From Syntrophomonadaceae bacterium (GTDB lineage: Bacteria; Bacillota; Dethiobacteria; DTU022; PWGO01), in NCBI GenBank assembly GCA_003550565.1, contig PUKQ01000096.1, forward strand, positions 1 to 53,490: DNA of 53,490 nt. The letters are read 5' to 3'. Under the pieces are notes generated by a model. The model did no database searches. It was not told the origin of the DNA and worked only from the letters and a program-made list of their open reading frames with translations. Made by a program: the position numbers and the translations under genes. Positions 1-32,370 of the stretch are shown here, piece after piece. Each line of letters opens with the position of its first letter. Positions within the stretch are counted from its first letter, which is position 1.

Positions 1-1
1 T

Positions 2-2398
2 CATCCTGAAGCTTGTTTGATTTGCGACAAAGGGAACCGTTGTAAACTGCGCCAAATTGCCTCGGATTTGGGGGTGGGTGTAAATGAAATGGAAAAAATA
101 CCGCGTTTTGCAAGTGTAGAAGAATTAAACCCTTTTTTAACGAGAGACAATAGTAAATGTATATTATGCGGCAAATGCATCAGGGCATGCCAGGAAATTG
201 TGGTAGAAGGCGCTATTGATTATTACCAAAGAGGATTCATCACCAAGCCTGCTACTTTCAATGATTATCCCCTTGAAAATTCGGAGTGCACTTTCTGTGG
301 AACCTGTGTAGCTATGTGCCCCACCGGCGCGTTAACGGAGAAAGAAAAGCCGTATCAGGGAACCGGCAGGGAAACTGTGCAAACTACCTGTTCTTTTTGC
401 GGATGCGGATGCCCTATATTGCTGGAAATAAAAGATAACCATATAGTGAGAGCTTTACCGGCTGAAGGTAAAATCCCTCATAAAGGCGCTCTTTGTGTGC
501 GGGGAAGTTACGGATACGATTATATCAATAGCAAAGATAGGTTAACCAAACCCCTGGTAAAGAGCAAAGATGGCTTTGAAGAAGTTTCCTGGGAAGAGGG
601 TTTGACTGCTGCAGCTGCCGGCTTAAAGGAAGTTAAAGAAAAGCATGGCCCATCTGCTCTGGCAGTTTTGGGTTCTTCCAAGTGTACTAATGAAGAAAAC
701 TATCTTTTACAGAGATTTGCCCGGACTGTATTGGAAACAAATCATATTGATAACGGCAGCAGCCTTTATAATGCTGCAACCCGTGCAGGGTTGTCAGAAA
801 CTATTGGATTTTTAAGTGCTACAAACTTATTGGAAGCACTTGAACAAGCGGAAATAATTTTAATGGTTGGCGCAGATCCTGCCGTAACTGCTCCTCAGGT
901 AGCCTATGCATTGAAGCGCGCTGTCAGGCAACACCATGCAAAATTAATCCTTATTGATTCTTGCTCTACAAAACTTTCCTCTTTTGCTCATCAGAGCATT
1001 TATCCCCATCCGGAAAGCGAGCTGGCATTATTAAACAGCCTGTCGAAAGTTATTATTGACGAAGGTTTATTAAATAGTGAATACCTGAGTCGCCAAACAG
1101 AAAGTTTTGCAGATTTTGAGGCGGCACTTGAAAACTTTTCTCCCGAAAATATAGCGGAAATTACGGGGGTTAATGCTATGGAAATCCGTAATGCCGCCCA
1201 TCTATATGCAGGGGCGGAAAAATCTGTAATAGTTTTTGGAGCAAGAGCTGCCGGCACTGTAAATGGTGCGGAAAATATTAAGGCAATTGCCAACCTGGCC
1301 CTCCTTACCAATAATGTGTGGGGCCGTGGGTGTGGCATCTATCCTCTTCAGAAAGAAAATAATGCCCAGGGTGCGGGTGAAATGGGGTCCTTGCCTAATT
1401 ATTTGCCCGGTTTTCGTTCACTTGCGGAAGTAACGGCTCGCCAAAGTTATGAAAGCCTCTGGCAAAAAAACTTACCTTCTGTATCAGGATTAAGTGCAGT
1501 AGAAATACTCTCTCAGGGCCATGATGGGGCATTAAAAGGCCTTTATATTGTGGGTGAAAATCCTGCTGCCGGGTTTCCCCAGTCTAAATTAGTTGCAGAT
1601 ACACTGGAAGGATTAGAGTTCTTGGTAGTTCAAGATATGTTTTTAACAGAAACAGCTAAAGATGCTGATGTAGTTTTACCTGCAGCGAGTTTTGCCGAAA
1701 AGGAAGGCTCTTTTACTAATTTTGAAGGAAGAATAGGCTGGCTGCAACAAGCTTTTACACCGAAAGGAGAAAGCCTGGCTGACTGGGATATTATTCTGCG
1801 TTTGGCTCGGCAATGGGGAGATCCTTTGCCTTATTTTTCTTTGCAAGAAGTGATAAACGAAATTGAGGAAAATGTACCCTTTTATGAAGGTTATATTTAC
1901 CCGGAAAAAAGATTGGGGGAGAAATGTTCTTACCTGGAAGAGCGTCGCAATAGAATTTTTCAATCTTTTACGGGGTTTCCCTGCTTTTCTATCCCACAAT
2001 ATACTCCTCCACTACTTGAAAGAGATAAGAAATATCCGTTTTATTTAACTGTGGAGAAGGTACTTCCTCATTTTGGCAGTGGAGTAAGAAGTGATAAAGC
2101 TCGGCGTTTGAAAAGCTTTTATCCCGAACCTTACTTAAGCATTTCTCCGGGAGATGCCCATGAGTTATCTTTGGTGTCCGGTGAACATGTTTATGTAAAA
2201 TCTCCCTTTGCGCAAATAGAACTGGTTTTAGAAGTTTCCAATGGCATACCCTCGGGAACTTTATCTGTGCCTGTTTCTATTTCGGGAGTAATGGATCTTT
2301 TTGGTGCCGCTACCGTTTCGGAAATGGATAATAACCGATGGGATTTCAGCTTGGCAGGTTGTTACGTTAATTTAGAAAGGGTGAGTATAAATGAGTGA
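2..2398 (+). CDS. NuoG/FdhA-like molybdopterin-oxidoreductase-family Fe-S subunit; 5' end cut by window edge; formate dehydrogenase catalytic dyad absent
   Basis: The frame is open back to nt 2. HPEAC-LIC-DKGNRC gives H-x3-C-x2-C-x5-C, the His-ligated 4Fe-4S motif of NuoG/HydA N-termini. CILCGKCIRAC and CTFCGTCVAMCP are ferredoxin motifs. CSFCGCGC...ALCVRG is the MopB-type cluster, and TNEENYLLQRFAR is typical of the FdhA/NuoG family. The position that aligns to E. coli FdhH ARV-U-H reads SSL-Y-N. Confidence 0.8.
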   Translation, partial: HPEACLICDKGNRCKLRQIASDLGVGVNEMEKIPRFASVEELNPFLTRDNSKCILCGKCIRACQEIVVEGAIDYYQRGFITKPATFNDYPLENSECTFCGTCVAMCPTGALTEKEKPYQGTGRETVQTTCSFCGCGCPILLEIKDNHIVRALPAEGKIPHKGALCVRGSYGYDYINSKDRLTKPLVKSKDGFEEVSWEEGLTAAAAGLKEVKEKHGPSALAVLGSSKCTNEENYLLQRFARTVLETNHIDNGSSLYNAATRAGLSETIGFLSATNLLEALEQAEIILMVGADPAVTAPQVAYALKRAVRQHHAKLILIDSCSTKLSSFAHQSIYPHPESELALLNSLSKVIIDEGLLNSEYLSRQTESFADFEAALENFSPENIAEITGVNAMEIRNAAHLYAGAEKSVIVFGARAAGTVNGAENIKAIANLALLTNNVWGRGCGIYPLQKENNAQGAGEMGSLPNYLPGFRSLAEVTARQSYESLWQKNLPSVSGLSAVEILSQGHDGALKGLYIVGENPAAGFPQSKLVADTLEGLEFLVVQDMFLTETAKDADVVLPAASFAEKEGSFTNFEGRIGWLQQAFTPKGESLADWDIILRLARQWGDPLPYFSLQEVINEIEENVPFYEGYIYPEKRLGEKCSYLEERRNRIFQSFTGFPCFSIPQYTPPLLERDKKYPFYLTVEKVLPHFGSGVRSDKARRLKSFYPEPYLSISPGDAHELSLVSGEHVYVKSPFAQIELVLEVSNGIPSGTLSVPVSISGVMDLFGAATVSEMDNNRWDFSLAGCYVNLERVSINE

Positions 2399-2876
2399 AA
2401 AACTAAAAAAACCCGAAATAGATATGGAAAGGCTTACGCACATAGTGAACAGTTATAAGTATCAAAAATGGTCTTTAATCCCTTTGGTACAGGACATTCA
2501 AGCTGAATTCGGCTTTATTCCCCCTGAATCCATACCCATTATTGCCGATGCTTTAAACCTATTTCCCAGTGAGGTGCAGGGAGTAGTTTCTTTTTACGCA
2601 CAGTTGTATACAGAGCCAAGGGGTAGAAACATAGTTCGTGTTTGCCGGGGAACGGCTTGTCATGTTCGTGGGGGCAAAACAGTGCTAAAACTGGTAAAAA
2701 AACAGCTGGGATTACAAGAAAACCAAACTTCTGAAGACCTGGAATATACTTTAGAAACAGTAGCATGCCTTGGAGTTTGTGCTCTTTCCCCCAGCATGGT
2801 TATAAATAACCAGGTATATGGAAATATGAACCCCAAAAAATTAAAGCTCTTATTTAAGGGGGAGGAGGATAGTTGA
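2391..2876 (+). CDS. NuoE/HydC-type thioredoxin-like [2Fe-2S] subunit
   Basis: 161 aa. VCRGTACHVRG ... CLGVCALSP gives the four-Cys pattern of NuoE/HndA. It overlaps the upstream gene by 8 nt, which suggests translational coupling. Confidence 0.85.
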   Translation: MSEKLKKPEIDMERLTHIVNSYKYQKWSLIPLVQDIQAEFGFIPPESIPIIADALNLFPSEVQGVVSFYAQLYTEPRGRNIVRVCRGTACHVRGGKTVLKLVKKQLGLQENQTSEDLEYTLETVACLGVCALSPSMVINNQVYGNMNPKKLKLLFKGEEDS

Positions 2877-5800
2877 TTATGCAAAAACGCACTGTATTTG
2901 TTTGCCAGGGAACCGGATGCTTTTCCAGTGGCTCTCAGGCTCTCTATGATCATTTACTTACGGAAGTAAAACGCTTGCAAATTCAGGATGCTGAAGTAGA
3001 TTTTACCGGATGCCATGGATTTTGTGAACAAGGGCCCATTGTCATCGTAGAACCGGAAGGAATATTTTACACTCGCGTTCAATCTGAGGACGCTTCCGAA
3101 ATAGCATTATCTCACCTGCAAAAAAACATACCGGTAGAGCGGCTCTACTATCGAGATCCTTTGAGTGGAGAGGCGATACCTTATTATAAAGATGTTAATT
3201 TTTATCAAAAACAACAGCGAGTAATTTTGGAAAACTGCGGGCATATAAACCCTGAAAATATTGAACATTCAATAACAAAAGGAAAATACCGGGGATTGGA
3301 AAGGGCCCTGCTAAATTTATCTCCCCAACAGGTCATCGAGGAAATAAAAGCATCGGGACTACGTGGCCGCGGGGGAGCCGGCTTTCCCACAGCGCGCAAA
3401 TGGGAATTTTGTTTTAACGCTCCCGGACCCAAAAAATATGTGATCTGTAATGCCGATGAAGGCGATCCCGGAGCTTTTATGGATCGTTCCATCCTGGAAG
3501 CCGATCCTCATGCGGTAGTAGAAGGTTTAACTATCGCCGGCTATGCTGTTGGTGCTGATGAAGGATATATTTATGTGCGCGCCGAGTATCCTCTGGCAGT
3601 GAAAAGACTGCGAATGGCCATTAAAGAAGCCTTAGATAAAGGTTTTTTGGGTAAAAATATTATGGATTCCGGTTTTAATTTTACCCTGAATATTAAAGAA
3701 GGTGCCGGTTCTTTTGTGTGCGGTGAAGAAACAGCCCTTATAGCTTCTATCGAAAGCCGTCGGGGAATGCCCAAGCCTCGTCCTCCTTTTCCTGCTCAAT
3801 CCGGGCTGGATGGAAAGCCAACGGTTATAAACAATGTTAAAAGTCTGGCAGCTGTTTCAGCCATTATGCGGCGTGGAGCAGATTGGTTTGCTTCTATAGG
3901 CACTGAAAAAAGCCGGGGAACAGTAGTTTTTGCCTTAACTGGAAAAGTAGCCAATAGTGGACTGGTGGAAGTAGAAGCAGGTACACCACTATCTTCCATC
4001 ATTTTCGATATAGGCGGTGGTATTCCTCGGGGCAAAAACTTTAAAGCTGTCCAAACCGGCGGTCCTTCGGGAGGATGTATCCCGGCACCTTACATGGATA
4101 CCCCGGTAGAATTTGAAAATCTGGCTCGCCTGGGATCCATCATGGGATCAGGGGGCATGGTGGTTTTGGATGAAAGCACTTGCATGGTAGAAATTGCCAG
4201 GTATTTTCTCAGCTTCACTCAATCGGAATCTTGTGGGAAGTGCACCCCTTGCCGCTTGGGCACCAGGCAAATGTTGGAGATATTAACCCGCATTACCCAG
4301 GGTTTGGGTCGAGACGGAGATATCGAGGCTCTCTACAATATTGCGAAAACAGTGAAGGAAGGCTCTTTATGTGGATTAGGACAAACTTGCCCTAATCCGG
4401 TTTTAACAACACTTGATTATTTTCGTAAAGAATATGAAATGCACATAAGAGAGAAAAAATGCCAGGCTGCGGTCTGCGATGCGCTTATGATTTCTCCCTG
4501 TCAACACACCTGCCCCGTGGGGGTAGATGTGCCTCGCTATGTGGAAGCTATTTCACGGGGGGCATATCTGGAATCGTTAGAGATAATCAGAGAACGTAAT
4601 CCTTTTCCCGCTATTTGCGGACGAATTTGCCATCATCCATGTGAAATGAGGTGCCGTCGTGGTGAACTGGATGATTCCCTGGCTATCAGGGCGTTAAAAC
4701 GTTTTGCCGGCGACTGGTATTTTGATAATATTCAAGAACTTCCTCCACCCGAACCTTTTGAGCGCCTTTATTCGCAAAATATTGCCGTGGTTGGGGCAGG
4801 CCCCTGCGGGCTTTCTTGCGCATATTTTTTAGCCCAGCTGGGATACGGAGTTACCATTTTCGAAGCTTTGCCTGTAGGCGGAGGAATGCTTTCTGTGGCT
4901 ATTCCTGAGTTTCGGCTACCCGAAAAAGTTCTTGAGGAAGAAATTAATTATATCCAAAATTGTGGGGTAGAAATTAAGTATAACACCCCGATTAACGTTA
5001 ATTTTACCATTGAAGATCTTAAGCAAATTGGTTATGATGCTGTATTTATTGCCGCCGGAGCTCAAAAAAGCCAGCAAATAGGAATACCCGGTGAAATTGA
5101 AGATTTGGAAGGATTTTATTATGGTTTACGTTTCCTGCGGGATGTAAAGATAGGCAAGACGGTATCTATTGGCAAAAAAGTGATAGTTATCGGCGGAGGT
5201 AATGTTGCTTTGGATACTGCCCGCACGGCTGTTCGCATGGGAGCAGAGCAGGTTGAAATATTTTATCGCCGCACCGAGGAACAAATGCCGGTTTCGGAAT
5301 TTGAGTACAAAGAAGCTTTAGATGAAGGAGTGAACGTGAATTTTCTGGTGAGTCCTACGCGCGTTGTAAGCGGTAATTGGAAGGTAACGGGAATAGAGTG
5401 TATTAAAATGAAACTGGGTGAGCCCGGCAGCGATGGAAGGCGTCGACCGGTACCGGTATCGGGAACTGAATTTTTTGCCGCAGCAGATACCGTATTTGCT
5501 TCCGTGGGACAGGCCCCTGATCTTTCATTTTTGCCAATTGATAGCGCCCTGGAGCGCTCTAGAATGGAAACCCTGGTGGTAGATGAAAATAGTCTTTCTA
5601 CAAATGTGCCGGGTGTATTTGCCGGAGGCGACTTTGTTACCGGCCCTGATATGGTAGTTGAGGCCATTGCGGCGGGAAGAAGAGGGGCGTTGGCTATAGA
5701 TAAGTATTTTAGAAAAGATCCTTCGCGGGTTTTAATGTATGATCTTCCTCTAAGTATGGGTATGGGAAAGGAGGAAGATGAGGAAGAAGGCTCTGAAGGC

Positions 5801-5971
5801 CTTGAAGAGGAATTGGAGGAAGAAACCTGGCAACCACAATTTCGACCCGAAACACCTCAACTTTCCGTCTTAATTAGGAAAAAGAGTTTTCAAGAAACAG
5901 AATTATGTTTTTCAGAAGAAGAAGCGGTTCAGGAATCGAAACGGTGCCTCAGGTGTGATCTGGAAAGATAA
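2873..5971 (+). CDS. Fusion flavoprotein: Trx-like [2Fe-2S] domain, NuoF/HydB NADH-FMN-FeS core and GltD/NfnB-type FeS-FAD-NAD(P)H oxidoreductase
   Basis: N-terminus: VFVCQGTGC...GCHGFCEQGP. NuoF motifs: GLRGRGGAGFPT and ESCGKCTPCR. GltD/NfnB-type region: CQHTCPVGVDVPRY...ICGRICHHPCEMRCRRG. Two Rossmann motifs: VVGAGPCGLSCAYFLA and VIVIGGGNVALDTA. There is an acidic E/D-rich tail and a terminal CLRCD. ATG at 2879 after GGAGGAGGA is the more likely start than TTG at 2873. Confidence 0.85.
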   Translation: MIMQKRTVFVCQGTGCFSSGSQALYDHLLTEVKRLQIQDAEVDFTGCHGFCEQGPIVIVEPEGIFYTRVQSEDASEIALSHLQKNIPVERLYYRDPLSGEAIPYYKDVNFYQKQQRVILENCGHINPENIEHSITKGKYRGLERALLNLSPQQVIEEIKASGLRGRGGAGFPTARKWEFCFNAPGPKKYVICNADEGDPGAFMDRSILEADPHAVVEGLTIAGYAVGADEGYIYVRAEYPLAVKRLRMAIKEALDKGFLGKNIMDSGFNFTLNIKEGAGSFVCGEETALIASIESRRGMPKPRPPFPAQSGLDGKPTVINNVKSLAAVSAIMRRGADWFASIGTEKSRGTVVFALTGKVANSGLVEVEAGTPLSSIIFDIGGGIPRGKNFKAVQTGGPSGGCIPAPYMDTPVEFENLARLGSIMGSGGMVVLDESTCMVEIARYFLSFTQSESCGKCTPCRLGTRQMLEILTRITQGLGRDGDIEALYNIAKTVKEGSLCGLGQTCPNPVLTTLDYFRKEYEMHIREKKCQAAVCDALMISPCQHTCPVGVDVPRYVEAISRGAYLESLEIIRERNPFPAICGRICHHPCEMRCRRGELDDSLAIRALKRFAGDWYFDNIQELPPPEPFERLYSQNIAVVGAGPCGLSCAYFLAQLGYGVTIFEALPVGGGMLSVAIPEFRLPEKVLEEEINYIQNCGVEIKYNTPINVNFTIEDLKQIGYDAVFIAAGAQKSQQIGIPGEIEDLEGFYYGLRFLRDVKIGKTVSIGKKVIVIGGGNVALDTARTAVRMGAEQVEIFYRRTEEQMPVSEFEYKEALDEGVNVNFLVSPTRVVSGNWKVTGIECIKMKLGEPGSDGRRRPVPVSGTEFFAAADTVFASVGQAPDLSFLPIDSALERSRMETLVVDENSLSTNVPGVFAGGDFVTGPDMVVEAIAAGRRGALAIDKYFRKDPSRVLMYDLPLSMGMGKEEDEEEGSEGLEEELEEETWQPQFRPETPQLSVLIRKKSFQETELCFSEEEAVQESKRCLRCDLER

Positions 5972-5980
5972 AAAGGAGGG

Positions 5981-6655
5981 ATGATCTTGAAATCTATAAC
6001 CAGGCTAAAACCTTATGCAGAAATTATGCAACAGCTGGAAGATTGCAACCGAGTTTTTATAGTGGGGTGCGGTACTTGTGCTACGGTGGTTCAAACAGGG
6101 GGGGTAGAGCAGGTAGAAGCTATGAAAGAGCAACTGCAGGACTCAGGGATGCTGGTAACCGGCTGGACGGTTATACCCACTGCCTGTGACGAGATGACTT
6201 CTGCTTCAACTGCTGAACATGAATCAGCCATCCAAAGCGCAAATGGAATATTGGTTATGGCTTGTGCTCTGGGGGTGCAGAGGCTAAATCTTTATACAGG
6301 CAAACGAGTCTTACCCGCTCTTGATACTTTGTTTATGGGGTTGGAAGAAAGTCCCGGCTATTTTGTGGAAGCTTGCGACCAGTGTGGAGAGTGCATTCTT
6401 GGCTATACGGCAGGGATATGCCCGGTAACTGCCTGTCACAAGGGTTTACTTAACGGCCCGTGTGGTGGTACCAACAAGGGTAAATGTGAAGTGGATCAAG
6501 AAAAAGATTGTGCTTTTACTCTTATATATCAGAAGTTAAGAGACCTGGGCCGGCCGGATTTAATGAAGCATTATCACCCCCCTAAAAATGCGCAGGCATG
6601 TCCTAGGCCAAAAGTTAAGATTCTGGAAGCAAAGGAGACAGAACAATGGATTTAA
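5981..6655 (+). CDS. metV: MetV, the Cys-rich small subunit associated with acetogen-type methylene-THF reductase
   Basis: 224 aa. Cys-rich motifs VGCGTCATV, CDQCGECILGYTAGICPVTACHKGLLNGPCGG and KCEVD. It sits immediately upstream of metF and overlaps it. RBS AAAAGGAGGG lies just before the ATG. Confidence 0.8.
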   Translation: MILKSITRLKPYAEIMQQLEDCNRVFIVGCGTCATVVQTGGVEQVEAMKEQLQDSGMLVTGWTVIPTACDEMTSASTAEHESAIQSANGILVMACALGVQRLNLYTGKRVLPALDTLFMGLEESPGYFVEACDQCGECILGYTAGICPVTACHKGLLNGPCGGTNKGKCEVDQEKDCAFTLIYQKLRDLGRPDLMKHYHPPKNAQACPRPKVKILEAKETEQWI

Positions 6656-7536
6656 AATTTAAAAGTTTACTTGATTCCGGAAAGTTTGTAGTGACTGCAG
6701 AAGTGGCACCGCCTAAAGGAATTGAGCTTGAACAGATGAACCATCACATTGAGCTTCTTAAAGGCAAAGTAGATGCTTTAAATGTAACCGATCACCAAAG
6801 TTCAGTTATGCGTTTCCCTTCCCTGGGAGGCTGCCTTGCCATTAAGGAAGGAGGCGGTGAAGCCATTTTGCAAATGACCTGCCGTGATCGCAACCAGATA
6901 GCCCTGCAGTCTGATCTCCTGTTTGCATACTCCCGGGGTATAAGAAATGTCCTTTGCCTTACCGGGGATGCTATGCCGGTGGGAGATCACCCTCAAGCCC
7001 GCGGTGTATTTGAAATGGACTCTGTTCAATTATTGCATTGTATAAACAGGTTGGAAGAAGGTTATGATATGGGAGGCAATGAATTAAAGGGAGAAGTTTC
7101 TTTTTGTAAGGGAGCAATAGTCACTCCGGAAGCAGATCCTTTAGAGCCTCAATTGAGCAAATTTGAAAAGAAAGTTGAAGCGGGTGTGGAATTTATTCAG
7201 ACCCAGGCTATCTATGATCTGGATAACTTTGCTGCTTTTATGGAGCATGCCCGACAATTTTCTGTAAAGATAATTGCCGGAATTGTTTTACTTACTTCTG
7301 CGAAAATGGCCAGATATATGAACAACAACGTTCCCGGCATTTTCGTGCCCCAGCATCTGATTGATGAACTGGCCGATGCTCCCAAAGGAACTGCTCTGCA
7401 GAAAGGAATTGAAATTGCGGGCCGCATGATTGCCACTTTACATAATGATGCCCTCTGTGATGGAGTCCATATCATGGCTATTAATAAGGAAGAAGTTGTC
7501 CCGGATATTTTGGAGGCTGCGGGTCTTCAGTCATAA
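6646..7536 (+). CDS. metF: 5,10-methylenetetrahydrofolate reductase (MetF)
   Basis: 296 aa. It matches the MTHFR family pattern: VTAEVAPPKG, ALNVTD, LQMTCRDRN, VLCLTGD and FIQTQAIYD. It overlaps the metV stop by 10 nt. Confidence 0.9.
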   Translation: MDLKFKSLLDSGKFVVTAEVAPPKGIELEQMNHHIELLKGKVDALNVTDHQSSVMRFPSLGGCLAIKEGGGEAILQMTCRDRNQIALQSDLLFAYSRGIRNVLCLTGDAMPVGDHPQARGVFEMDSVQLLHCINRLEEGYDMGGNELKGEVSFCKGAIVTPEADPLEPQLSKFEKKVEAGVEFIQTQAIYDLDNFAAFMEHARQFSVKIIAGIVLLTSAKMARYMNNNVPGIFVPQHLIDELADAPKGTALQKGIEIAGRMIATLHNDALCDGVHIMAINKEEVVPDILEAAGLQS

Positions 7537-7551
7537 TAATATTAACCTTTT

Positions 7552-8805
7552 TTAAGGCATATTTTTATCAACATAAACGGCTAATTTTCCTAGAAAGTTA
7601 ACATAACTACCAAGTTCATTGTCATACCAACCGAAAATTTTAGCGTGGGTAACCGGAATATTAATGTCCTCTTGTATTTCGATGCCGTGTTCGCGAAGGG
7701 TTTTAGCATAAAAGGGTATGAAACCGGTTCTGGTATGTGTTTCTGCTCCTTCAATAATAATTGCAGCAGGATAACCAATCATGTCGGATGAAACGTTCTT
7801 TTTTTCACTGTAGACAAGCATTTCTTTTTGGGGGCCTTCAGCGGCTTTTTTATAAATATTGTTAATAAAATTTTTGCTTAAAAGAGGTTCGCCATCTTCG
7901 CTTAGGGTAGTGTTAAACGTAACGTTGAGGACAATGAGAGAAGCTGTACTAATGGGAACTCTAACTGAATCTGCCATGATGCCGATCTGCTTTATTTCCG
8001 GTAAAATATTTTCCAGAGCAAACCCTGCGCCGGTAGTGGTCATGATTATGTTGTTAAATACAGAACGAGTTTTTCTCAAATCAGAAGCATCTGCTTTAGG
8101 TGCTGAATCTAATATATTTTGATTATTTGTAGCTGCATGGACAGTAGACATTGAAATAGTAATAATTTCTGATGTTTCGCGGGTATCCAGCAGCGGGCTG
8201 ACCATGTGGGCCAAACCGGTAGTTGTACAGCTGGCGGCAGAAATAATATGGTGTTCATCAGGTTCGTATTCATGATGATTGATTCCATATACAAAAGTGC
8301 CGCAATCAGGTGGAATGTCTTGGATGTTATCGGACGCTTTAAAGGGAGCGCTAACAATAACTTTTTCGGCCCCGGCTTCAAGGTGACCGCGCATGCCGCC
8401 TTTGGGGTGATCTGCAGGAGCAGTGGGATCAACAAAATTTCCCGTGCACTCCACAACCAACCGCACATCTTCCCTAGCCCAGTTAATATTTTTTGGATTT
8501 CTAGAATCCGCAATAAGTTTAATCGGTAATCCGTTAATAGTAAAAATAGATGACTCCCGATCAACAATTTCGATATCGCAGGTATTGCCCGAATATCCGT
8601 AAAAGAAATTATCCAGAGATCCAAAAGTAGAATCTTTTACCAGGTAGTCAATAAAGTCTTCCAATTTTTTGCCCACTTTTCTGCCGGCATTAATAACAAA
8701 ACCATCAAAGTGCCCATAGTTTAAATGGTTCCACAGGGTGAGTTTCCCAATCCGCCCGATACCATTGATGCCTATTTTTTTAGTGCTTTTTAGGAGATTA
8801 CTCAA
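7552..8805 (-). CDS. Long-form glyceraldehyde-3-phosphate dehydrogenase family protein
   Basis: 417 aa. IGINGIGRIGK is the NAD-binding N-terminus. SAASCTTTGLAH matches the canonical SCTTNCLAP catalytic Cys. TVHAATNNQNILD contains the catalytic His. DLRKTRS and VRVPISTASL are Pi-site-like. It has a TTG start and is the last gene of the minus-strand pair with the 1360-aa protein. Confidence 0.8.
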   Translation of the reverse strand: MSNLLKSTKKIGINGIGRIGKLTLWNHLNYGHFDGFVINAGRKVGKKLEDFIDYLVKDSTFGSLDNFFYGYSGNTCDIEIVDRESSIFTINGLPIKLIADSRNPKNINWAREDVRLVVECTGNFVDPTAPADHPKGGMRGHLEAGAEKVIVSAPFKASDNIQDIPPDCGTFVYGINHHEYEPDEHHIISAASCTTTGLAHMVSPLLDTRETSEIITISMSTVHAATNNQNILDSAPKADASDLRKTRSVFNNIIMTTTGAGFALENILPEIKQIGIMADSVRVPISTASLIVLNVTFNTTLSEDGEPLLSKNFINNIYKKAAEGPQKEMLVYSEKKNVSSDMIGYPAAIIIEGAETHTRTGFIPFYAKTLREHGIEIQEDINIPVTHAKIFGWYDNELGSYVNFLGKLAVYVDKNMP

Positions 8806-8865
8806 TTTCCTTTTTCACCCCTATCTTTCTAAAATATATTGAATTATTGAGCAAATTTGTCTTTA

Positions 8866-11800
8866 TCAGCTTTTTGCGCTTTGGTATGAAAATGAAAGTT
8901 GATCATCCTCTGCATGTATGCTTCCCACTTGCCCATCGATATATATAGTGGCACCTGATTTAATGGTGACATTGTTAATTGTACATTCTTTATTGGTTTC
9001 GTCAACTTTAAGTTCTTTGCAATTAACAATGCATACTTTACCTAATTTCTGGGCCGATACCGCTGCGTGGGAAGTAATGCCTCCCCGGCTGGTAACCAGC
9101 CCGTCGCTTGTAAAAATCATGTGAATATCATCGGGTACCGTATCGGGTCGAATTAAAATGTGATTTTCCTCGGGATATTTATTTTTGTTTGCTTGTAGAT
9201 CTTCCATATAGAAGCTGACAATGCCTTTCATGAGGCCTCCACCAACACCAATGCCTTTACCGATCATATTTCCTCTTGCAGTGGTGTTGCTAAAGGAGGT
9301 TTCCTTTTCTTTGGGAGTAATTTCTTGTTCTCTGGTTTGAAGAAGGTACAGATCTTTTGGTTCCGGTGACTCAAAAGTAAATTCAATCTGCTGGTGGTTA
9401 AAACCGTGTGTTTCTATTAATTCGGCAGCAATTTCATACAGTCGTCGAAAGATTTTAGGAAATGCAGATTCAAGAGAAAATTCACAGTCCTGGTATTCAT
9501 TTATGCGCTGCCTTTCTGAAACAGGCATAGTATACACAAGGCCGGAGACGATATCTTCTCCCTGACTGCAAGTTGTAAAATCTCCATAGAGATGGATGCC
9601 GGGTTTATTCAATTTAGGATCATGGGTAAAAACTACACCTGTACCGGAGCTTCTTGAGCGGTTGCCCATTACCATTTTTTGGACGGTAACTGCTGTACCC
9701 CATTCATCGGCGATTTGCATATGTTTGCGATAAGCATTGGCTCTTTTAGAAGACCATGAATCAAAAACAATGGAAATAGCCTGCTTAAGTTGTTCAAAAG
9801 AATTCTCTGCAACGAAAACATTATTTTTGTTGAGTATTTTTTTATATTCTTTAGCTATTTCTTTCATTTGGGTTGCATTGAAGAAAGATTTAAGCTTAAC
9901 ATTATATCTTTTCTTATGATAAGCCATGATTTCATCAAATAAATCCCGATCAATGCCATACGCCATGCCCCAACTTTGGATAAATCGCCGGTAAGAATCC
10001 CAGCCCATCCAAGCTGTTTTGGCGTTTTTACCCAACTCTTCGGCGATAGCATCGTTCATTCCCACATTTAGCAGGGTAATCATGGCACCGGGCATTGAAA
10101 ATGCTGTGCCGGAACGAACAGACAAAAGCAAAGGGTTTTTAACACTGCCAAATTTCAATTCCTCGGTGGCCTCTAAGGCATGAACCTGGGTTAAAATTTT
10201 GTTTTCCAGGTCACGAAGCATATTTTGGTTTTTAAAAATAGTTTGCTTGTGCCTATAGACTTCTGTGGTGAGAACAAAACCGGGAGGTATGGGTAATTTG
10301 TAAGAAGACATCTTTTTAAGGTAATATGCTTTAGCACCCAGAAAGATTCGATTGTCCATAGGTAGGGTTTCTTGGGTTAAAGGGCTGATAGCCATTTCCG
10401 GCTTATAGCTGGTAGTGGTATGAATATGAACTTCCTTATTGTTTTCAATAAGGTTTTCGGTTACATTGATTAAATTAGCCAGGAAATTATCAATTTCCTG
10501 CATTAAAAAGGATGAGGACAAAATATCCCGGTAAAAAATCTCAGATACGTTCATGAGCGTTTCAGCTGAATCATCGTATATTTGGGGTATTACAATATTG
10601 AGAGCTTCATCGTAAAACCTCATAAAATATTTATTTATTGCTTCTTTGATGTGCCCGGACATGAATCTGAAAATGTTTATATATTGACCCAGTGTTACGC
10701 TGGGTGAAAAAAGGCTGTGCCAAAACATCTCTAAGGTGGAATTGAAATTTTGGTTTACTATCCCATCTAACTCAAGCCCTTTTTTGAATTGAACAAGCAG
10801 TGCATATATTCCATCAAGAGTGCGTGGCGAAAAATTTTCCAGGGGTAAGTCTTTTAATGTTCTTTCAATCAGATGAGAAGCTAATTGTTCCAGCCTGTAA
10901 ATTAGACCCAGAGCTTCGAATTTTGGTTCTCTGTATTCCCCATACATTGAAGGAATGCCTATGGCAATATGCCTTTTATAATAAATGTTTTCTACGGGTT
11001 CAGTTATATCTTCGTCCAGTATTATTTCATTTAAATCATTCATAAAAGCATACACTTGTTCCAGGGCTTGTTGATGCATGTTTTGTTCTAAAAATTCTTG
11101 CAGTTTCTTAATATCGTCTTTTTGGAAAAAATTACTGCGTGATAAAACATCAATGATGTTGTTGGCCTCGAAAGAATATTTAGCTAATAAAAGTTTATTC
11201 ATATGAATAAGATATATTAATCGTTGTTTATCTCTTTCATTTACCGAACTCTGGTTTTGGATGAAATCTGCAACTTCATCTTCAGGTAATTTCAAAAGTC
11301 CTTCAAAGTCAACGTGGAAGTGTTTGCATACTTCATTCATAAGGAGATTTATTTCTACAAAATACTCACTTTCTACATCAATAAATTCGATAACGTCGCC
11401 GGGCAATATAGCTTTTAGTGGTTTTAAGTCACCATTGTACCAAAAGCCGGCTACTTTTTTAATAAGCTCCACATGCATATTGTTACTTTCGGCGTGGATT
11501 TGCTTTCTAACAAAATGCATGAGCCGGTCTTTTCTTCCGGATAGTTCATCTATAGCTGTGCTGTAATCGCGCAGGTCTCCTTCGGCGCCAATTTCGTTGT
11601 AATAAACCGGAAAAACTCTGGCTAATTGCTTAACTTGTTTAAATACTAGCCCGATATTTGCGTTTAGTAGTTTAGTGATATCACGCTGGAAAAGATCAGT
11701 GTCAGAGATAAAAATGCCGCCAAGTTTTAGATTAACCAGAAGAGCCGACAGAAGCTTTTTAAAATTATAAGGTGATATCCTAATTAATTCCAGCCAAATT

Positions 11801-12948
11801 CTAATATTTTTCACATGGTTTGGGTTAGCTTTGGTTACCCAGTCATCAGTTATTTCAATTTTTCCCGGGAATACAAAGCCAAACTCAATAAGGTTATCTA
11901 TGTAATGGGTAATAATTTCCTGGTCATCAATATCGGCGATTTCTTTTCCTAGTGTAAGTTGACAATCTAAAATTGTCCCGGTGTGTTGTTCTTTAAGATC
12001 AATGAAAAGGTTAAACATAATGTCAATGAAAGGATAAACATCTTTGTTGTCAAGCTCTGCCAAAACTGTTTTAAGCAATCTATTCAGATCATAGAGGAGG
12101 TGATTTTTAAGAGGAATCATCCCCGGTAAATGTAACAAATATAAAAGGTAATAAATTTTCTCTATAGAGAGTTCAAGCTCTTCTATAAAATGTCGAAAGT
12201 AGTTGGCAATTTCTTCAAAAAAGAGGTTCGATTCAATTTCTTTCCAATCTTGAGATGCCTCGATTTGTTCTGATAGATCTTTAAAAAATTTTTTACCGAG
12301 TTGCTTAATTTTTTCCTGGCTTTCGGGTAGAAATAGTTCTGATTTGCTTTCTATCCATTCTTCGATATTTGTTGTATTTTCCCAATATGCACAGCTTTTT
12401 CGCAGTACATCTTTGGTAATATCGCAAATTTTTTGATTAAACTCCGGCACTTTGGCTACTTTTCTTAGATACATTTTAAAGTGCCTTGCATTCCGCAGGT
12501 AAATATCTTCATTTTTAGCCATTCCCTGTTCAATCAAGTCCAAGCATTTCCAAATTACCCTGGGGGGGTAGTTACCTTCTTTGGCCAGTTTGTCAACAAA
12601 CTCGAAGAGTGTTCTAACCAATTGTTCCTGTAGTTTTTCTTCCAGTTCTTTGCTTTGCAATTCTTCAAAAATACTTACCAAAAAAAGCAAGGCTTCTTCC
12701 GATTCTTCCACCGAATTATAAAGCCACAATTCGTTTATGCTGATTTTATGCAAACTTTTAATAATAAAAGCGTAATCGGGGTATGCGTGGTTATATTCTT
12801 TAATAAAATTTTCTGTTTTTTTGTTTATGCCCCAGTATGAAGCAGATAAAGAAATAAACCAGCGATGCTTTTCCGGAAACTCTATCTGCTCCTGTTTTGT
12901 TTGTGTTAAGTTAGCCTCTAATGCTTTTGACTTAAAAGTGCTTTTCAT
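8866..12948 (-). CDS. PPDK/PpsA-like phosphotransfer enzyme: ATP-grasp nucleotide-binding domain plus swivelling phospho-His domain, with an ~860-aa unknown helical N-terminal region and no PEP/pyruvate TIM-barrel domain
   Basis: 1360 aa. Residues ~864-1360 align by eye to the PPDK N-terminal two thirds: FLGAKAYYLKKM, LPIPPGFVLTTEV, LLLSVRSGTAFSMPGAMITLLNVGMND, DSYRRFIQSWG, GTAVTVQKMVMGN, SGTGVVFTHDP, GEDIVSG, QQIEFTFE, LYLLQTR and TSRGGITSHAAV. The His codon is at 9067-9069. The protein ends 66 aa after that His. Confidence 0.8.
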   Translation of the reverse strand: MKSTFKSKALEANLTQTKQEQIEFPEKHRWFISLSASYWGINKKTENFIKEYNHAYPDYAFIIKSLHKISINELWLYNSVEESEEALLFLVSIFEELQSKELEEKLQEQLVRTLFEFVDKLAKEGNYPPRVIWKCLDLIEQGMAKNEDIYLRNARHFKMYLRKVAKVPEFNQKICDITKDVLRKSCAYWENTTNIEEWIESKSELFLPESQEKIKQLGKKFFKDLSEQIEASQDWKEIESNLFFEEIANYFRHFIEELELSIEKIYYLLYLLHLPGMIPLKNHLLYDLNRLLKTVLAELDNKDVYPFIDIMFNLFIDLKEQHTGTILDCQLTLGKEIADIDDQEIITHYIDNLIEFGFVFPGKIEITDDWVTKANPNHVKNIRIWLELIRISPYNFKKLLSALLVNLKLGGIFISDTDLFQRDITKLLNANIGLVFKQVKQLARVFPVYYNEIGAEGDLRDYSTAIDELSGRKDRLMHFVRKQIHAESNNMHVELIKKVAGFWYNGDLKPLKAILPGDVIEFIDVESEYFVEINLLMNEVCKHFHVDFEGLLKLPEDEVADFIQNQSSVNERDKQRLIYLIHMNKLLLAKYSFEANNIIDVLSRSNFFQKDDIKKLQEFLEQNMHQQALEQVYAFMNDLNEIILDEDITEPVENIYYKRHIAIGIPSMYGEYREPKFEALGLIYRLEQLASHLIERTLKDLPLENFSPRTLDGIYALLVQFKKGLELDGIVNQNFNSTLEMFWHSLFSPSVTLGQYINIFRFMSGHIKEAINKYFMRFYDEALNIVIPQIYDDSAETLMNVSEIFYRDILSSSFLMQEIDNFLANLINVTENLIENNKEVHIHTTTSYKPEMAISPLTQETLPMDNRIFLGAKAYYLKKMSSYKLPIPPGFVLTTEVYRHKQTIFKNQNMLRDLENKILTQVHALEATEELKFGSVKNPLLLSVRSGTAFSMPGAMITLLNVGMNDAIAEELGKNAKTAWMGWDSYRRFIQSWGMAYGIDRDLFDEIMAYHKKRYNVKLKSFFNATQMKEIAKEYKKILNKNNVFVAENSFEQLKQAISIVFDSWSSKRANAYRKHMQIADEWGTAVTVQKMVMGNRSRSSGTGVVFTHDPKLNKPGIHLYGDFTTCSQGEDIVSGLVYTMPVSERQRINEYQDCEFSLESAFPKIFRRLYEIAAELIETHGFNHQQIEFTFESPEPKDLYLLQTREQEITPKEKETSFSNTTARGNMIGKGIGVGGGLMKGIVSFYMEDLQANKNKYPEENHILIRPDTVPDDIHMIFTSDGLVTSRGGITSHAAVSAQKLGKVCIVNCKELKVDETNKECTINNVTIKSGATIYIDGQVGSIHAEDDQLSFSYQSAKS

Positions 12949-13225: not shown

Positions 13226-14632
13226 ATGAATGCTAATGGAAAGATACTACAAGAAGGCCTTTTTAACCGGGTTTACGGACTCTTTGGAGTAATGAATAAG
13301 TTTCCGGACGTAATGAGCGAAGCTGAACTGGAAGGGTTAATTAAAGTACTTCCTCCCGATTCGGCAAACAGCATAAGATCCATCTTAAGGCCATCTATCC
13401 AGGAAGCAAGTATGGCTTATATAAAAATGCTTAATGTATGGCTTGCGGAAGCCAGGCAGGCGCGAGATGAAGGTAAAAAAGTTATCCTTCTTCCTTTTAA
13501 CTTTAACCCGGAAATTATTCATTTTTTTGATAATATATTTCCTCTTACCAGTGAAGTCCTTACCACCATGGGAGTTGTAGCCTTGGAGGGGCAAGGTCAA
13601 AGATACTGGGATTACGCTATGGGTATGGGCATGCCTGACCATATTTGTTCGGCGAATTCGGTGGAAATTGGTTCCGTACTTACAGGAGTGGATTTTAAGC
13701 CCGATGCCGTGATTTCTGCAGCGCCGGGGGCTTGTGACATGAACGCTAAAATTCACGAGTTTTTGGCCAGATACCTCGAAATTCCTCAGTTTGTAATACA
13801 AAAACCGCCGGATAATACCCGGCGGGGTTATGAATTTTTTAAAAACAGCTATAGAAATTTAATTGCTATGCTGGAAGATTATGCGGGAGAAGAAGTAAAA
13901 GAGGAAAAAATGCGGGAAGTGGCGACAAAAGCAAACCGCTGCACAGAATTGTATTACGACCTTTGGGAGTTAAAAAAGCAGGTGCCCTGTCCTGTACCGG
14001 GACTATTTTCCCTCTATATTATTGGAGTGAGGTTTGCCATGTGGGGAAGGGATGAAGGTATAACAACAATGCAAAAAATGGTGGAGGTGGCTCGCCGAAA
14101 CCTTGAAGATCCACATTGCCAAAATCGAGAAGAAGTTGCCCGGGTCCTCTGGACTTATGTAAGTTATTATTACGACTTGCTTGGTTTTTATGATTGGATG
14201 GATGAAAAGGGATTTATTAATATGGGGGACATGCTCCAGATAAATTTTACCCAACCCATAGATTTAAGCACTCGCGAAAGCATTCTTGACGGTATAGTGG
14301 AAAACGCATGGAATGCTTTTATGACCAGGCAAATGGGGGGTGATTCCATGTCACTGCGGTGGGTGAATGATCTCATTCACATTGTTAAAGAGTTTGGTGT
14401 CAACGGTGCTATCTTTTGCGGTCATCATGCTTGCAAACAAAGTCAGAGTGTTTTTTCCATTGCCCGTAAGGAACTTCAAGAAAAAACCGGAGTTCCCACC
14501 TTAAGGTTACAGGGGGATTCCTGGGTAGGCTCTATGACTCCTATGAGTGTTATTCAGGCAGAGGTAGAGCAGTTTATAAATAATGTAGTTAATAAAAAAA
14601 GAAGGCGTCGGAAAAAATCCGGAGGAGTATAA
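13226..14632 (+). CDS. 2-hydroxyacyl-CoA dehydratase / benzoyl-CoA reductase (HgdB/BcrB/BadE) family protein, solitary
   Basis: 468 aa. Family-typical N-terminal GKKVILLPFNFNPEIIHFFD and Cys-containing HICSANS, GACDMNAK and CGHHACKQS. It has a poly-basic C-terminus, KKRRRRKKSGG. No partner subunit or activase is adjacent. Confidence 0.7.
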   Translation: MNANGKILQEGLFNRVYGLFGVMNKFPDVMSEAELEGLIKVLPPDSANSIRSILRPSIQEASMAYIKMLNVWLAEARQARDEGKKVILLPFNFNPEIIHFFDNIFPLTSEVLTTMGVVALEGQGQRYWDYAMGMGMPDHICSANSVEIGSVLTGVDFKPDAVISAAPGACDMNAKIHEFLARYLEIPQFVIQKPPDNTRRGYEFFKNSYRNLIAMLEDYAGEEVKEEKMREVATKANRCTELYYDLWELKKQVPCPVPGLFSLYIIGVRFAMWGRDEGITTMQKMVEVARRNLEDPHCQNREEVARVLWTYVSYYYDLLGFYDWMDEKGFINMGDMLQINFTQPIDLSTRESILDGIVENAWNAFMTRQMGGDSMSLRWVNDLIHIVKEFGVNGAIFCGHHACKQSQSVFSIARKELQEKTGVPTLRLQGDSWVGSMTPMSVIQAEVEQFINNVVNKKRRRRKKSGGV

Positions 14633-14666: not shown

Positions 14667-15149
14667 TTATATTTTTCCCTCCAGTTTGCTAATATCGTTT
14701 TGTAATTTTTTCTTCACTTTTTCTTTATTTTTTAAGACATTTTTATAATCAAACGCCCCTTTAATATTATTGCCTGCCAATTCTTTTTCAAGATTGCGCA
14801 GTGTTTTGCCGGGCATCCCCATATGGGTGCAAAAAAGGACAATAATTTTTCCCGAAATGGAGTTTTCTTTTAGGAAACTTCTTATTGGAGGAGAGAAGTT
14901 AAAGCTCCACACGGGTGTCCCCAAAAAAATCAAATCATACTTATGGAGATCAAGATCATATTCTTTGAGCTGAGGGGATTCACGCATCATGACCTGCTTG
15001 CCGCCCCATATATGCTTGATGGGTTCAACTTTTGAAAGCTCTTTTACGGGTTTGAGTTCCTGAAAGTCTAACTCAAAATGTTCTCCTATGCACTCCGCGA
15101 TAAACCTGGTATTGCCTTCAAGTGAATAATAGACCACTATTTTATCCAT
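14667..15149 (-). CDS. Flavodoxin family protein
   Basis: 160 aa. The N-terminal KIVVYYSLEGNTRFIAE matches the flavodoxin FMN phosphate-binding loop pattern. The size fits short-chain flavodoxin-like proteins. Confidence 0.75.
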   Translation of the reverse strand: MDKIVVYYSLEGNTRFIAECIGEHFELDFQELKPVKELSKVEPIKHIWGGKQVMMRESPQLKEYDLDLHKYDLIFLGTPVWSFNFSPPIRSFLKENSISGKIIVLFCTHMGMPGKTLRNLEKELAGNNIKGAFDYKNVLKNKEKVKKKLQNDISKLEGKI

Positions 15150-31632: not shown

Positions 31633-32370
31633 ATGAGTTTAGTATTTATGTTTAACCAGTTGATTAAAGCAGTTGTGATGTACGGAGTGCAGTATAGTAC
31701 CGGCTTGTTAGTTAAGCATAAAGGGATGAAAGTTAATTATACCCGGAAAATAAATCATTTTGTGCTCTTTTTTGTACCTGCTTTTGTTGACAGAGGATTT
31801 GCTATGGAAGAATCTTTGGAGTTATTTGCCCTGGGTGGGATAGGTGCTGTAGTTTCACTGGTTATTTATATAGGCCCTATTCGCCAAAGAGTGCCTTTTA
31901 TCGATACCATGTTTAAATCTTTTGACCGCCCGGAAGATCGACCTCATACCTTATTATGGCTTTCTACTCAAGTAGCGGCGGGGCAAGTGGTAATCATTTC
32001 CATGACTTCTCTCTTTGTTTATTACGACTTGACACACTTAATCTTAATCCCTATTCTCATTAACGGCATTGGGGACGGCCTGGCTGAACCGGTGGGTGTT
32101 CGATTCGGCAAGCATCCTTATGAAACCCGGGCTTTATTTACCCAAAAGAGATATGTGCGTACTTATGAGGGAAGCGCCTGTGTATTTTTTACTAGTTTAA
32201 TTGTAGTTTGTTTGTTTCATACACTTTTTACGCCCTGGCAGCTAGTTGCGGCTCTGGTTATTTTGCCACCGCTGATGACCCTTACCGAAGCTGTTTCACC
32301 TCATACTTGGGATAATCCTTTTCTTTTCCTGGTAGGGTATCTTGCCCTTTGGGGCATATCATTTATATAA
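31633..32370 (+). CDS. CTP-dependent polyprenol/phytol/dolichol kinase-like membrane protein (CdsA superfamily)
   Basis: 245 aa, multi-TM. Motifs in family order: TRKINHF, GIGDGLAEPVGVRFGKH, RTYEGSACVF and EAVSPHTWDN. Confidence 0.6.
   Translation: MSLVFMFNQLIKAVVMYGVQYSTGLLVKHKGMKVNYTRKINHFVLFFVPAFVDRGFAMEESLELFALGGIGAVVSLVIYIGPIRQRVPFIDTMFKSFDRPEDRPHTLLWLSTQVAAGQVVIISMTSLFVYYDLTHLILIPILINGIGDGLAEPVGVRFGKHPYETRALFTQKRYVRTYEGSACVFFTSLIVVCLFHTLFTPWQLVAALVILPPLMTLTEAVSPHTWDNPFLFLVGYLALWGISFI

Follow-up and report, generated by a model that had tools for sequence, protein, structure and literature searches.

A NuoEFG-associated metVF cluster in a Syntrophomonadaceae genome pairs a NuoF::GltD fusion with an FdhA-like subunit predicted to lack formate dehydrogenase activity

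The 5' end of contig PUKQ01000096.1 (assembly GCA_003550565.1, a Syntrophomonadaceae bacterium), which was analyzed over its whole length of 53,490 nucleotides (hereafter the window), carries five genes on the + strand in which metV and metF, for methylene-tetrahydrofolate (THF) reductase (MTHFR), follow a predicted redox module. The gene order is FdhA-like iron-sulfur (Fe-S) subunit (G), NuoE-like subunit (E), HydB/NuoF::GltD fusion (F), MetV, and MetF, with open reading frames (ORFs) listed at 17/2..2398, 2391..2876, 2873..5971, 5981..6655, and 6646..7536. The cluster comprises the following features:

2..2398, + strand: gene 1 (G), FdhA-like/NuoG-like Fe-S subunit (Pfam, NCBIfam, and PDB matches)
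743..790, + strand: degenerate formate dehydrogenase (FDH) active-site loop HIDNGSSLYNAATRAG in gene 1 (alignment with 7vw6 and orthologues)
1343..1372, + strand: second degenerate FDH motif in gene 1, PLQKENNAQG (alignment with 7vw6 and orthologues)
2391..2876, + strand: gene 2 (E), NuoE/HydC/StnA-like thioredoxin-like [2Fe-2S] subunit, 161 residues (PF01257, E 7e-45; NCBIfam FDH gamma/NuoE)
2873..4447, + strand: gene 3, N-terminal part, HydB/BfuB-type NuoF (Pfam Complex1_51K, NADH_4Fe-4S, SLBB)
4448..5971, + strand: gene 3, C-terminal part, GltD/NfnA-type domain (Pfam Fer4_20, Pyr_redox_2)
5981..6655, + strand: gene 4, MetV, probable start TTG 5987 (PF12225, E 4e-34)
6646..7536, + strand: gene 5, MetF, catalytic flavoprotein of MTHFR, 296 residues (PF02219, E 1e-42)

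All four junctions are overlaps or gaps of at most 15 nucleotides, and each was read directly from the sequence. The ATG of gene 2 (2391) lies within an 8-nucleotide overlap with the TGA of gene 1 (2396-2398), the TTG of gene 3 (2873) stands in a 4-nucleotide overlap with the TGA of gene 2 (2874-2876), the TAA of gene 3 (5969-5971) is separated by 9 nucleotides from ATG 5981, which sits 1 nucleotide past GGAGG, and the ATG of metF (6646) overlaps the TAA of metV (6653-6655) by 10 nucleotides. In gene 3, an alternative ATG at 2879, used in the gene call of a close relative whose fusion is 97% identical, would leave a gap of 2 nucleotides. A Shine-Dalgarno-like sequence precedes every start; for metV, TTG 5987 is probably the true one, since it is ideally spaced (7 nucleotides past GGAGG) and the metV genes of relatives are called at 222 residues. 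The original prediction of five same-strand genes joined by overlaps or tiny gaps was therefore accurate; the 9-nucleotide gap before metV holds for ATG 5981 and widens to 15 nucleotides with the likelier start. Its reading that no terminator separates the genes also agrees with a consensus scan, in which no terminator-like or promoter-like site fell at a junction and counts within positions 1..9000 were not above those of shuffled controls. Only 798 of about 893 codons of gene 1 lie inside the window, which truncates the gene at its 5' side, and the operon thus begins outside it. The cluster ends with metF, 15 nucleotides short of the end of a convergent gene resembling glyceraldehyde-3-phosphate dehydrogenase (GAPDH).

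Gene 1 has Pfam domains Molybdopterin, Molybdop_Fe4S4, Molydop_binding, Fer4_7, and NADH-G_4Fe-4S_3, and its predicted clusters are a His-ligated [4Fe-4S], two ferredoxin-type [4Fe-4S], and the MopB FS0 [4Fe-4S]. Its top PDB matches are alpha subunits of NAD-dependent FDHs. Against the NCBIfam model TIGR01591, it scores 536 bits, under the curated cut-off of 666; the roughly 95 N-terminal residues absent from the query fall outside the range of the model. The full-length protein of the 97% relative (an uncultured Syntrophomonadaceae metagenome-assembled genome, or MAG; fusion P0001, locus L001) has 893 residues and carries Fer2_4 at its N-terminus; it has no GltD domain.

The residues on which formate chemistry depends have been lost. 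In alignment with the tungsten FDH 7vw6, the loop HIDNGSSLYNAATRAG reads SLYN at the metal-ligand site, with selenocysteine or cysteine (Sec/Cys) replaced by Tyr256 and His by Asn257, where genuine FdhA has (V/I)DxCxR(L/V)(U/C)H. In the second motif, PLQKENNAQG stands against PLRGQNNVQG of genuine FdhA, so that Gln replaces the catalytic Arg. A further alignment set nine G subunits encoded with metVF against seven FdhA genes that, in the collected loci, neighbor other NuoF or NuoF::GltD genes. Tyr-Asn/Ser has taken the place of the Sec/Cys-His pair in 9/9 of the former, the Arg motif is altered in 9/9 (L007 alone still has Arg at that position), and the Lys linking FS0 to the pterin has become Arg (n = 9). 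The control FdhA genes retain U/C-H, RGQNNVQG, and CVKGR, all intact in 7/7, and five of the seven contain an in-frame TGA. Fe-S cysteines are kept in all eight of the MetVF-linked G subunits whose sequence extends over the N-terminal region. Because the FDH catalytic residues are replaced across the MetVF-linked orthologues, gene 1 is predicted to encode a catalytically dead FdhA-like protein, not a formate dehydrogenase, which would serve as a wire or scaffold; in the MetVF-linked clade described below, the former FDH appears to have decayed into a connector. The domain labels first assigned to the cluster agree with Pfam and NCBIfam, although "NuoG-like" would be better rendered as FdhA-like with substitutions at all three catalytic positions.

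The predicted cluster cysteines of gene 2 are Cys85, 90, 126, and 130. Gene 3 encodes a 1032-residue fusion of a NuoF/HydB-type flavoprotein with a GltD-type unit. Its NuoF part contains an N-terminal [2Fe-2S]-type four-Cys site (C11, 16, 47, 51), the flavin mononucleotide (FMN) loop GLRGRGGAGFPT, the NADH loop CNADEGDPGAF, and the ligands of the N3/B1 [4Fe-4S] cluster (C454, 457, 460, 500). Residues 4-540 match chains of bifurcating enzymes with 741 (7t2r_B), 714 (7q4v_B), 640 (NfnB, 9bov_B), and 629 bits (StnB, 8oh5_B), but non-bifurcating FdsB (6vw7_B) and Nqo1 (2fug_1) with only 376-393 bits. By these scores, the nearest counterparts of the NuoF part are bifurcating HydB/BfuB chains, not those of the FdsB/Nqo1 type.

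The GltD part carries putative ligands for two [4Fe-4S] clusters (C543, 547, 582, 586, 590, 594, a C-terminal RC1025LRC1028, and Lys609), the flavin adenine dinucleotide (FAD) loop GAGPCG, the NADPH loop GGGNVA with YRR, and an acidic linker. Comparison with solved structures places residues 540-1029 nearer to the GltD parts of NfnA (9n5u_A, 9bov_A) and StnC (8oh5_C) than to the NfnB subunit of NfnAB. Lys609 aligns with StnC Lys170 and Arg681 with StnC Arg239; Lys170 is an unusual ligand of the FAD-adjacent cluster, strictly conserved in StnC and replaced by Glu in NfnB (PMC10482914). The GltD domain is thus assigned to the Stn/NfnA kind. The C-terminal tail of the fusion can be aligned both to the segment that follows GltD in NfnA/StnC and to the RCLQC at the N-terminus of NfnB, and its two cysteines probably complete the distal GltD cluster. 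Across 12 homologues, the N-terminal four Cys, the FMN and NADH loops, and the N3/B1 ligands are invariant, as are the eight GltD-domain Cys with the C-terminal RCLRC, GAGPCG, and GGGNVA with YRR. Furthermore, BfuB alignments end at fusion residue ~540 and Fer4_20/GltD begins beyond (GltD after NuoF residue ~525). In its position in the chain, the GltD domain takes the place of the C-terminal ferredoxin-like domain of BfuB, whose B3/B4 clusters are the ferredoxin reduction site in the cryo-electron microscopy structure of NfnABC (PMC12018979).

MetV has 14 Cys and, at residues 158-163, the NGPCGG motif described for this protein (PMC8515935). MetF matches MTHFR structures in the PDB, where our search returned no solved MetV homologue or MetFV-type complex. 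Neither RnfC-like nor HdrA/B/C/MvhD genes lie beside metVF in the window cluster or related loci. A biosynthetic metF under an S-adenosylmethionine or THF riboswitch was considered and set aside, there being no Rfam match in the window or in four related loci.

An exact-sequence look-up gave no match for the fusion, and P0001 of the 97% relative served in its place. A protein search with the fusion returned at least 8000 proteins at E <= 1e-50, the best 120 of which are full-length fusions, 72-97% identical. Loci came from scans of genomes and of metagenomes, together with named matches looked up in Dethiobacteria, Chloroflexota, and Syntrophomonadaceae MAGs, and the five cluster proteins were located in them by tblastn. 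The order G-E-F::GltD-MetV-MetF recurred in 14/14 other distinct loci with enough downstream sequence and a fusion at least 56% identical; their carriers are Syntrophomonadaceae, Dethiobacteria, and Chloroflexota/Dehalococcoidia MAGs. A neighbour-joining tree built from 66 full-length fusions unites these 14 loci and the window in one clade. Outside it, metVF stood beside the fusion in 0/37 loci, each with at least 1.5 kb of downstream sequence, and the order was E-F::GltD-X. Here X is an [FeFe]-hydrogenase HydA (L034, L047, L081), a genuine Sec/Cys FdhA (L030, L033, L056), a short NuoG-like Fe-S protein (L059, L066), an HdrA-like protein (L051, L057), or a glutamate-synthase-like protein (L028). 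Full-length NuoF::GltD fusions with varying partners, 38-55% identical to that of the window, make up a large family, of which we found no characterised member in the examined literature and solved structures. Solely in the MetVF-linked clade has the G gene moved to the front of the cluster.

Since the E-F::GltD pair outside the clade precedes catalytic partners, E and F::GltD behave as a reusable redox module whose partner would supply the third substrate, MetVF in the window's clade. The five genes most likely behave as one conserved functional unit. The original prediction had counted it against a link to metVF if orthologous three-gene modules usually lacked these genes; all 14 orthologous loci carry them, and only paralogous clades do not. 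In a separate observation, the sister-clade locus L043 (3944-10872) encodes NuoE, NuoF::GltD, and an FdhA in which both Cys-His and RGQNNVQG are preserved, with a MetF fragment directly after FdhA at the contig end and no space for MetV. This locus may represent a second, independent link of the redox module to MetF.

Regulatory genes accompany the cluster in related genomes. In eight related loci from Syntrophomonadaceae, Dethiobacteria, and Chloroflexota MAGs (L001 at 3522-6794, L007, L008, L009, L016, L096, L098, and L099), the region 5' of gene 1, which in our case lies outside the window, encodes a GAF-HisKA_3 sensor kinase and a 250-265-residue double-receiver protein. A NarL/GerE-type response regulator is also found upstream in seven of the eight, being missing in L007. 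The double-receiver gene lies 44-90 nucleotides from gene 1, and because the sole promoter-like match in the 97% relative precedes it, the transcription unit may comprise six genes, with the double-receiver gene first.

Taken together, we favor, with a probability of roughly 0.6, the reading that the five genes encode one soluble multi-subunit MTHFR, a NuoEFG-associated ("X" type) enzyme that a Bfu/Stn-like module with NAD(H) and NADP(H) sites would feed and that is probably energy-coupled. What is inferred from sequence is that the subunits form a physical complex, how electrons travel through it, that it bifurcates, and whether ferredoxin or NADP+ is its low-potential partner. In such an enzyme, the MetF flavin would reduce methylene-THF or oxidize methyl-THF, and MetV, with two [4Fe-4S] clusters, would exchange electrons with the Fe-S chain of the dead FdhA-like subunit, acting as wire and scaffold much as the FdhF-like domain does in StnC. 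That chain would lead to a Bfu-type core formed by the NuoE [2Fe-2S] cluster and the HydB-like NuoF with its FMN and NAD(H) site, to which the GltD domain on the NuoF C-terminus (two [4Fe-4S], FAD, and an NADP(H) site) would be attached. The complex would in this way join the methylene-/methyl-THF couple to both pyridine-nucleotide pools, probably by flavin-based coupling and not by plain downhill transfer, bifurcating when it works reductively and confurcating when it works oxidatively. The methylene-/methyl-THF couple has a potential of about -200 mV, compared with near -320 mV for pyridine nucleotides and near -450 to -500 mV for ferredoxin (PMC6295475, PMC9304861), so that a Bfu-type core could conserve energy reductively. 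Oxidatively, it could drive the uphill methyl-THF oxidation needed by syntrophic acetate oxidisers.

Several points weigh against this interpretation. Co-transcription alone is no proof of subunit association, and MetFV of the 2S type is active alone with reduced ferredoxin (PMC8515935). The ferredoxin-like domain of BfuB is absent from the fusion, and because this B3/B4 domain is the ferredoxin site of NfnABC (PMC12018979), the canonical Bfu mechanism is not simply transferable. In addition, two pyridine-nucleotide sites together with methylene-THF make the stoichiometry ambiguous, and the physiological direction cannot be read from the window since it contains no Wood-Ljungdahl genes. As the GltD domain stands in the chain where BfuB has its B3/B4 ferredoxin outlet, NADP+ is a conceivable low-potential acceptor, and we consider, as a long shot, a ferredoxin-independent three-substrate bifurcation in which the low-potential electron would pass from the NuoE/NuoF flavobicluster to NADP+. 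The reductive reaction would be 2 NADH + NADP+ + methylene-THF -> 2 NAD+ + NADPH + methyl-THF, and in the oxidative direction, methyl-THF would be oxidized to NADH, driven by NADPH. If this were true, NADH-to-NADPH transhydrogenation would be driven by the exergonic methylene-THF step, a form of coupling undescribed for any MTHFR or Bfu enzyme.

Alternatively, the cluster may encode a simple NAD(P)H-dependent MTHFR, in which the NuoF and/or GltD sites feed electrons downhill through Fe-S clusters to MetVF with dual NADH/NADPH specificity and no energy coupling. The RnfC2-MetFV enzyme of Acetobacterium woodii, which has an NADH-binding Complex1_51K-type subunit on MetFV (PMC8515935), is a precedent, electron transfer from NAD(P)H to methylene-THF is exergonic, and the missing B3/B4 domain is the one that reduces ferredoxin (PMC12018979). 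However, the NuoF part, its NuoE partner, and the N-terminal four-Cys domain are of the bifurcating HydB/BfuB type, not that of FdsB/Nqo1, five Fe-S/flavin subunits with two nucleotide sites would be uneconomical for a downhill reaction, and the carriers are energy-limited anaerobes, all of which make this explanation unlikely. A poorer fit is offered by two separate enzymes in a shared operon, one being a transhydrogenase (G-E-F::GltD) of permuted Stn/NfnABC-like layout and the other a 2S-type MetFV that works alone and depends on ferredoxin, co-expressed to match redox carriers. Every Stn building block is present, including the inactive FdhF-like domain and the Stn-type Lys ligand (PMC10482914), and 2S-type MetFV needs no partner for activity (PMC8515935). 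Nevertheless, the co-occurrence with metVF is strict and clade-wide (14/14), the G gene has its front position in this clade only, the ferredoxin-like domain essential for ferredoxin reduction by NfnABC is missing, and X-type MetFV forms a separate phylogenetic group (PMC8515935), so that we regard two enzymes as improbable.

Scarcely credible, finally, is a coupling of FDH to MTHFR, in which formate oxidation or CO2 reduction at gene 1 would be connected via NuoEF to methylene-THF reduction, as Frank et al. proposed for a similar cluster (PMC5080403). Gene 1 is annotated as an FDH and is FdhA-like over its whole length. Yet it falls under the TIGR01591 cut-off, and its substitutions (Sec/Cys to Tyr, His to Asn/Ser, Arg to Gln or another residue in most orthologues, and the FS0-pterin Lys to Arg) contrast with the FdhA proteins of neighbouring clades, which retain these residues; moreover, the analogous domain of StnC showed no formate activity (PMC7483475). 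Given the active-site loss in gene 1 and its orthologues, we reject this coupling. The single energy-coupled MTHFR complex thus remains our preferred reading. The original prediction of an unusual MTHFR complex is in this respect the best-supported one, and the five genes form one conserved unit in 14/14 loci, but the type is not an undescribed one. Its statement that the same building blocks (NuoE, NuoF, GltD, and NuoG/FdhF-like) occur in Stn agrees with the literature (PMC7483475, PMC10482914), whereas its other suggestion, that MetFV is co-transcribed with a plain Stn transhydrogenase, is a poor match, with GltD on the NuoF C-terminus and the BfuB ferredoxin-like domain missing.

How energy is coupled when methylene-THF is reduced has long been an open question in the bioenergetics of acetogens and syntrophic acetate oxidisers, as regards both the energy gained reductively and the driving of uphill methyl-THF oxidation. 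The NuoEFG-linked type is abundant, judging from the thousands of proteins matching the fusion, and has never been purified. Our analysis suggests that the "formate dehydrogenase" annotated in such clusters is a catalytically dead protein, which would correct a published functional inference, that the NuoF subunit bears a Stn-type NADPH domain where the ferredoxin outlet usually sits, and that the MetVF-linked module is a branch of a larger NuoF::GltD family pairing with hydrogenases, real FDHs, and HdrA-like proteins. The dead FDH, the GltD swap, and the module family lead to testable predictions on substrates and stoichiometry.

The rest of the window encodes sugar-acid/uronate catabolism, 2-hydroxyacyl-CoA-dehydratase-like proteins, a large PPDK-like protein, and housekeeping genes. 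The GAPDH-like gene downstream of metF (7552-8805, - strand) encodes 417 residues, about 85 over the usual length, and scores 293 bits against TIGR01534, whose cut-off is 367; the protein may be a divergent or insertion-bearing paralogue. In the 97% relative, a gene for an SNF-family transporter of 459 residues lies between metF and the convergent GAPDH-like gene (L001, 14658-16577), while in the window the two are only 15 nucleotides apart (7536-7552), an indel of about 1.9 kb. A 1360-residue protein (8866-12948, - strand) has PPDK_N and PEP-utilizers domains confined to its last ~460 residues, the first ~900 being without a Pfam match. Three HGD-D (2-hydroxyglutaryl-CoA-dehydratase D-component-like) genes lie at 13226-14632 (+), 34280-35584 (-), and 35584-36693 (-), and a flavodoxin-like gene at 14667-15149. 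Two ORFs, of 833 residues (27405-29906, +) and 245 residues (31633-32370, +), match no Pfam family at E <= 1e-5 and lie inside the uronate/sugar-acid gene set (UxaC, KDPG aldolase, PfkB kinase, and MFS_2 transporter).

The association of NuoEFG homologues with metVF, taken in the original prediction for an undescribed one, is not new, having been flagged in two earlier studies. In unFirm_1, an uncultured Firmicute with the Wood-Ljungdahl pathway, Frank et al. (2016, mSystems) described a "second formate dehydrogenase" adjoining nuoE, nuoF, and a second metVF, five consecutive genes (IMG 2635450610-14) whose products were all found in the metaproteome, and interpreted the cluster as coupling CO2 reduction to methylene-THF reduction (PMC5080403). 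The unFirm_1 cluster agrees with ours in gene types and count and appears, going by its published description, to be the same arrangement; the FdhA-like subunit of the window, however, lacks the catalytic residues that the proposed FDH role would need. Yi et al. (2021, Microbiol Spectr) reported NuoEFG homologues upstream of metFV in Dethiosulfatarculus sandiegensis as an "X type" MTHFR, uncharacterised but widespread in Desulfobacterales and Chloroflexi, with bifurcation speculated and with MetFV in a phylogenetic group of its own, group III (PMC8515935). The window likewise has NuoE, NuoF, and NuoG homologues directly upstream of a metV-metF pair with NGPCGG and the MTHFR fold, and the arrangement recurs here, too, in Chloroflexota/Dehalococcoidia MAGs, although the window's carrier is a Syntrophomonadaceae MAG and the X-type representative is D. 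sandiegensis. That study makes no mention of a GltD fusion, a dead FdhA active site, the G-E-F order, or a conserved two-component system; the architecture of the window (GltD fusion and dead FdhA) is likely identical with the X type, the two being compared by description only. Elsewhere, a survey of the Bfu family leaves tetrahydrofolate unmentioned, and NuoEF and MetFV both appear, though not as one cluster, in papers on Chloroflexi, NPL-UPA2, Hakuba Actinobacteria, Moorella caeni, Thermanaeromonas, and DTU068. The second metF of "Ca. Syntrophonatronum acetioxidans," beside a [NiFe] hydrogenase, was considered as a possible misannotated version of the present cluster and dropped, genuine large and small hydrogenase subunits having been described (PMC6295475).

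Among characterized enzymes, the Stn/NfnABC (Bfu-type) transhydrogenases (Kremp 2020, PMC7483475; Kumar 2023, PMC10482914; Li 2025, PMC11829005; Xiao 2025, PMC12018979) share with the window a NuoE-like subunit and HydB-like NuoF core with B1, a GltD-type FAD/NADPH domain with the Lys ligand and Arg, and an inactive FdhF-like domain, which in StnC showed no formate activity (PMC7483475). They differ from it in four respects: Stn has GltD at the N-terminus of its NuoG-like subunit, whereas the window has it at the NuoF C-terminus in one 1032-residue chain; the window lacks the BfuB ferredoxin-like domain (B3/B4); its MopB domain is far nearer to real FdhA than that of Stn; and its module always has metVF downstream within its clade, unlike the stand-alone three-gene Stn/NfnABC unit. 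Characterised MetFV enzymes, for their part, have no NAD(P)H site, which is supplied by RnfC2 or HdrA, or use reduced ferredoxin (PMC8515935). As in the window, MetFV of the RnfC2-MetFV (3S, A. woodii) and HdrABC-MvhD-MetFV (6S, Moorella and Sporomusa) types borrows an adjacently encoded NAD(P)H flavoprotein and Fe-S subunits, and the 6S type is likewise suspected of bifurcation, but these partner modules (RnfC-like; HdrA/MvhD) are unrelated to the Bfu/GltD module of the window. Beyond the earlier reports, our analysis corrects the identity of the FDH-like subunit, recognizes a Stn-type GltD fusion in place of the ferredoxin outlet, and provides clade-specific synteny counts.

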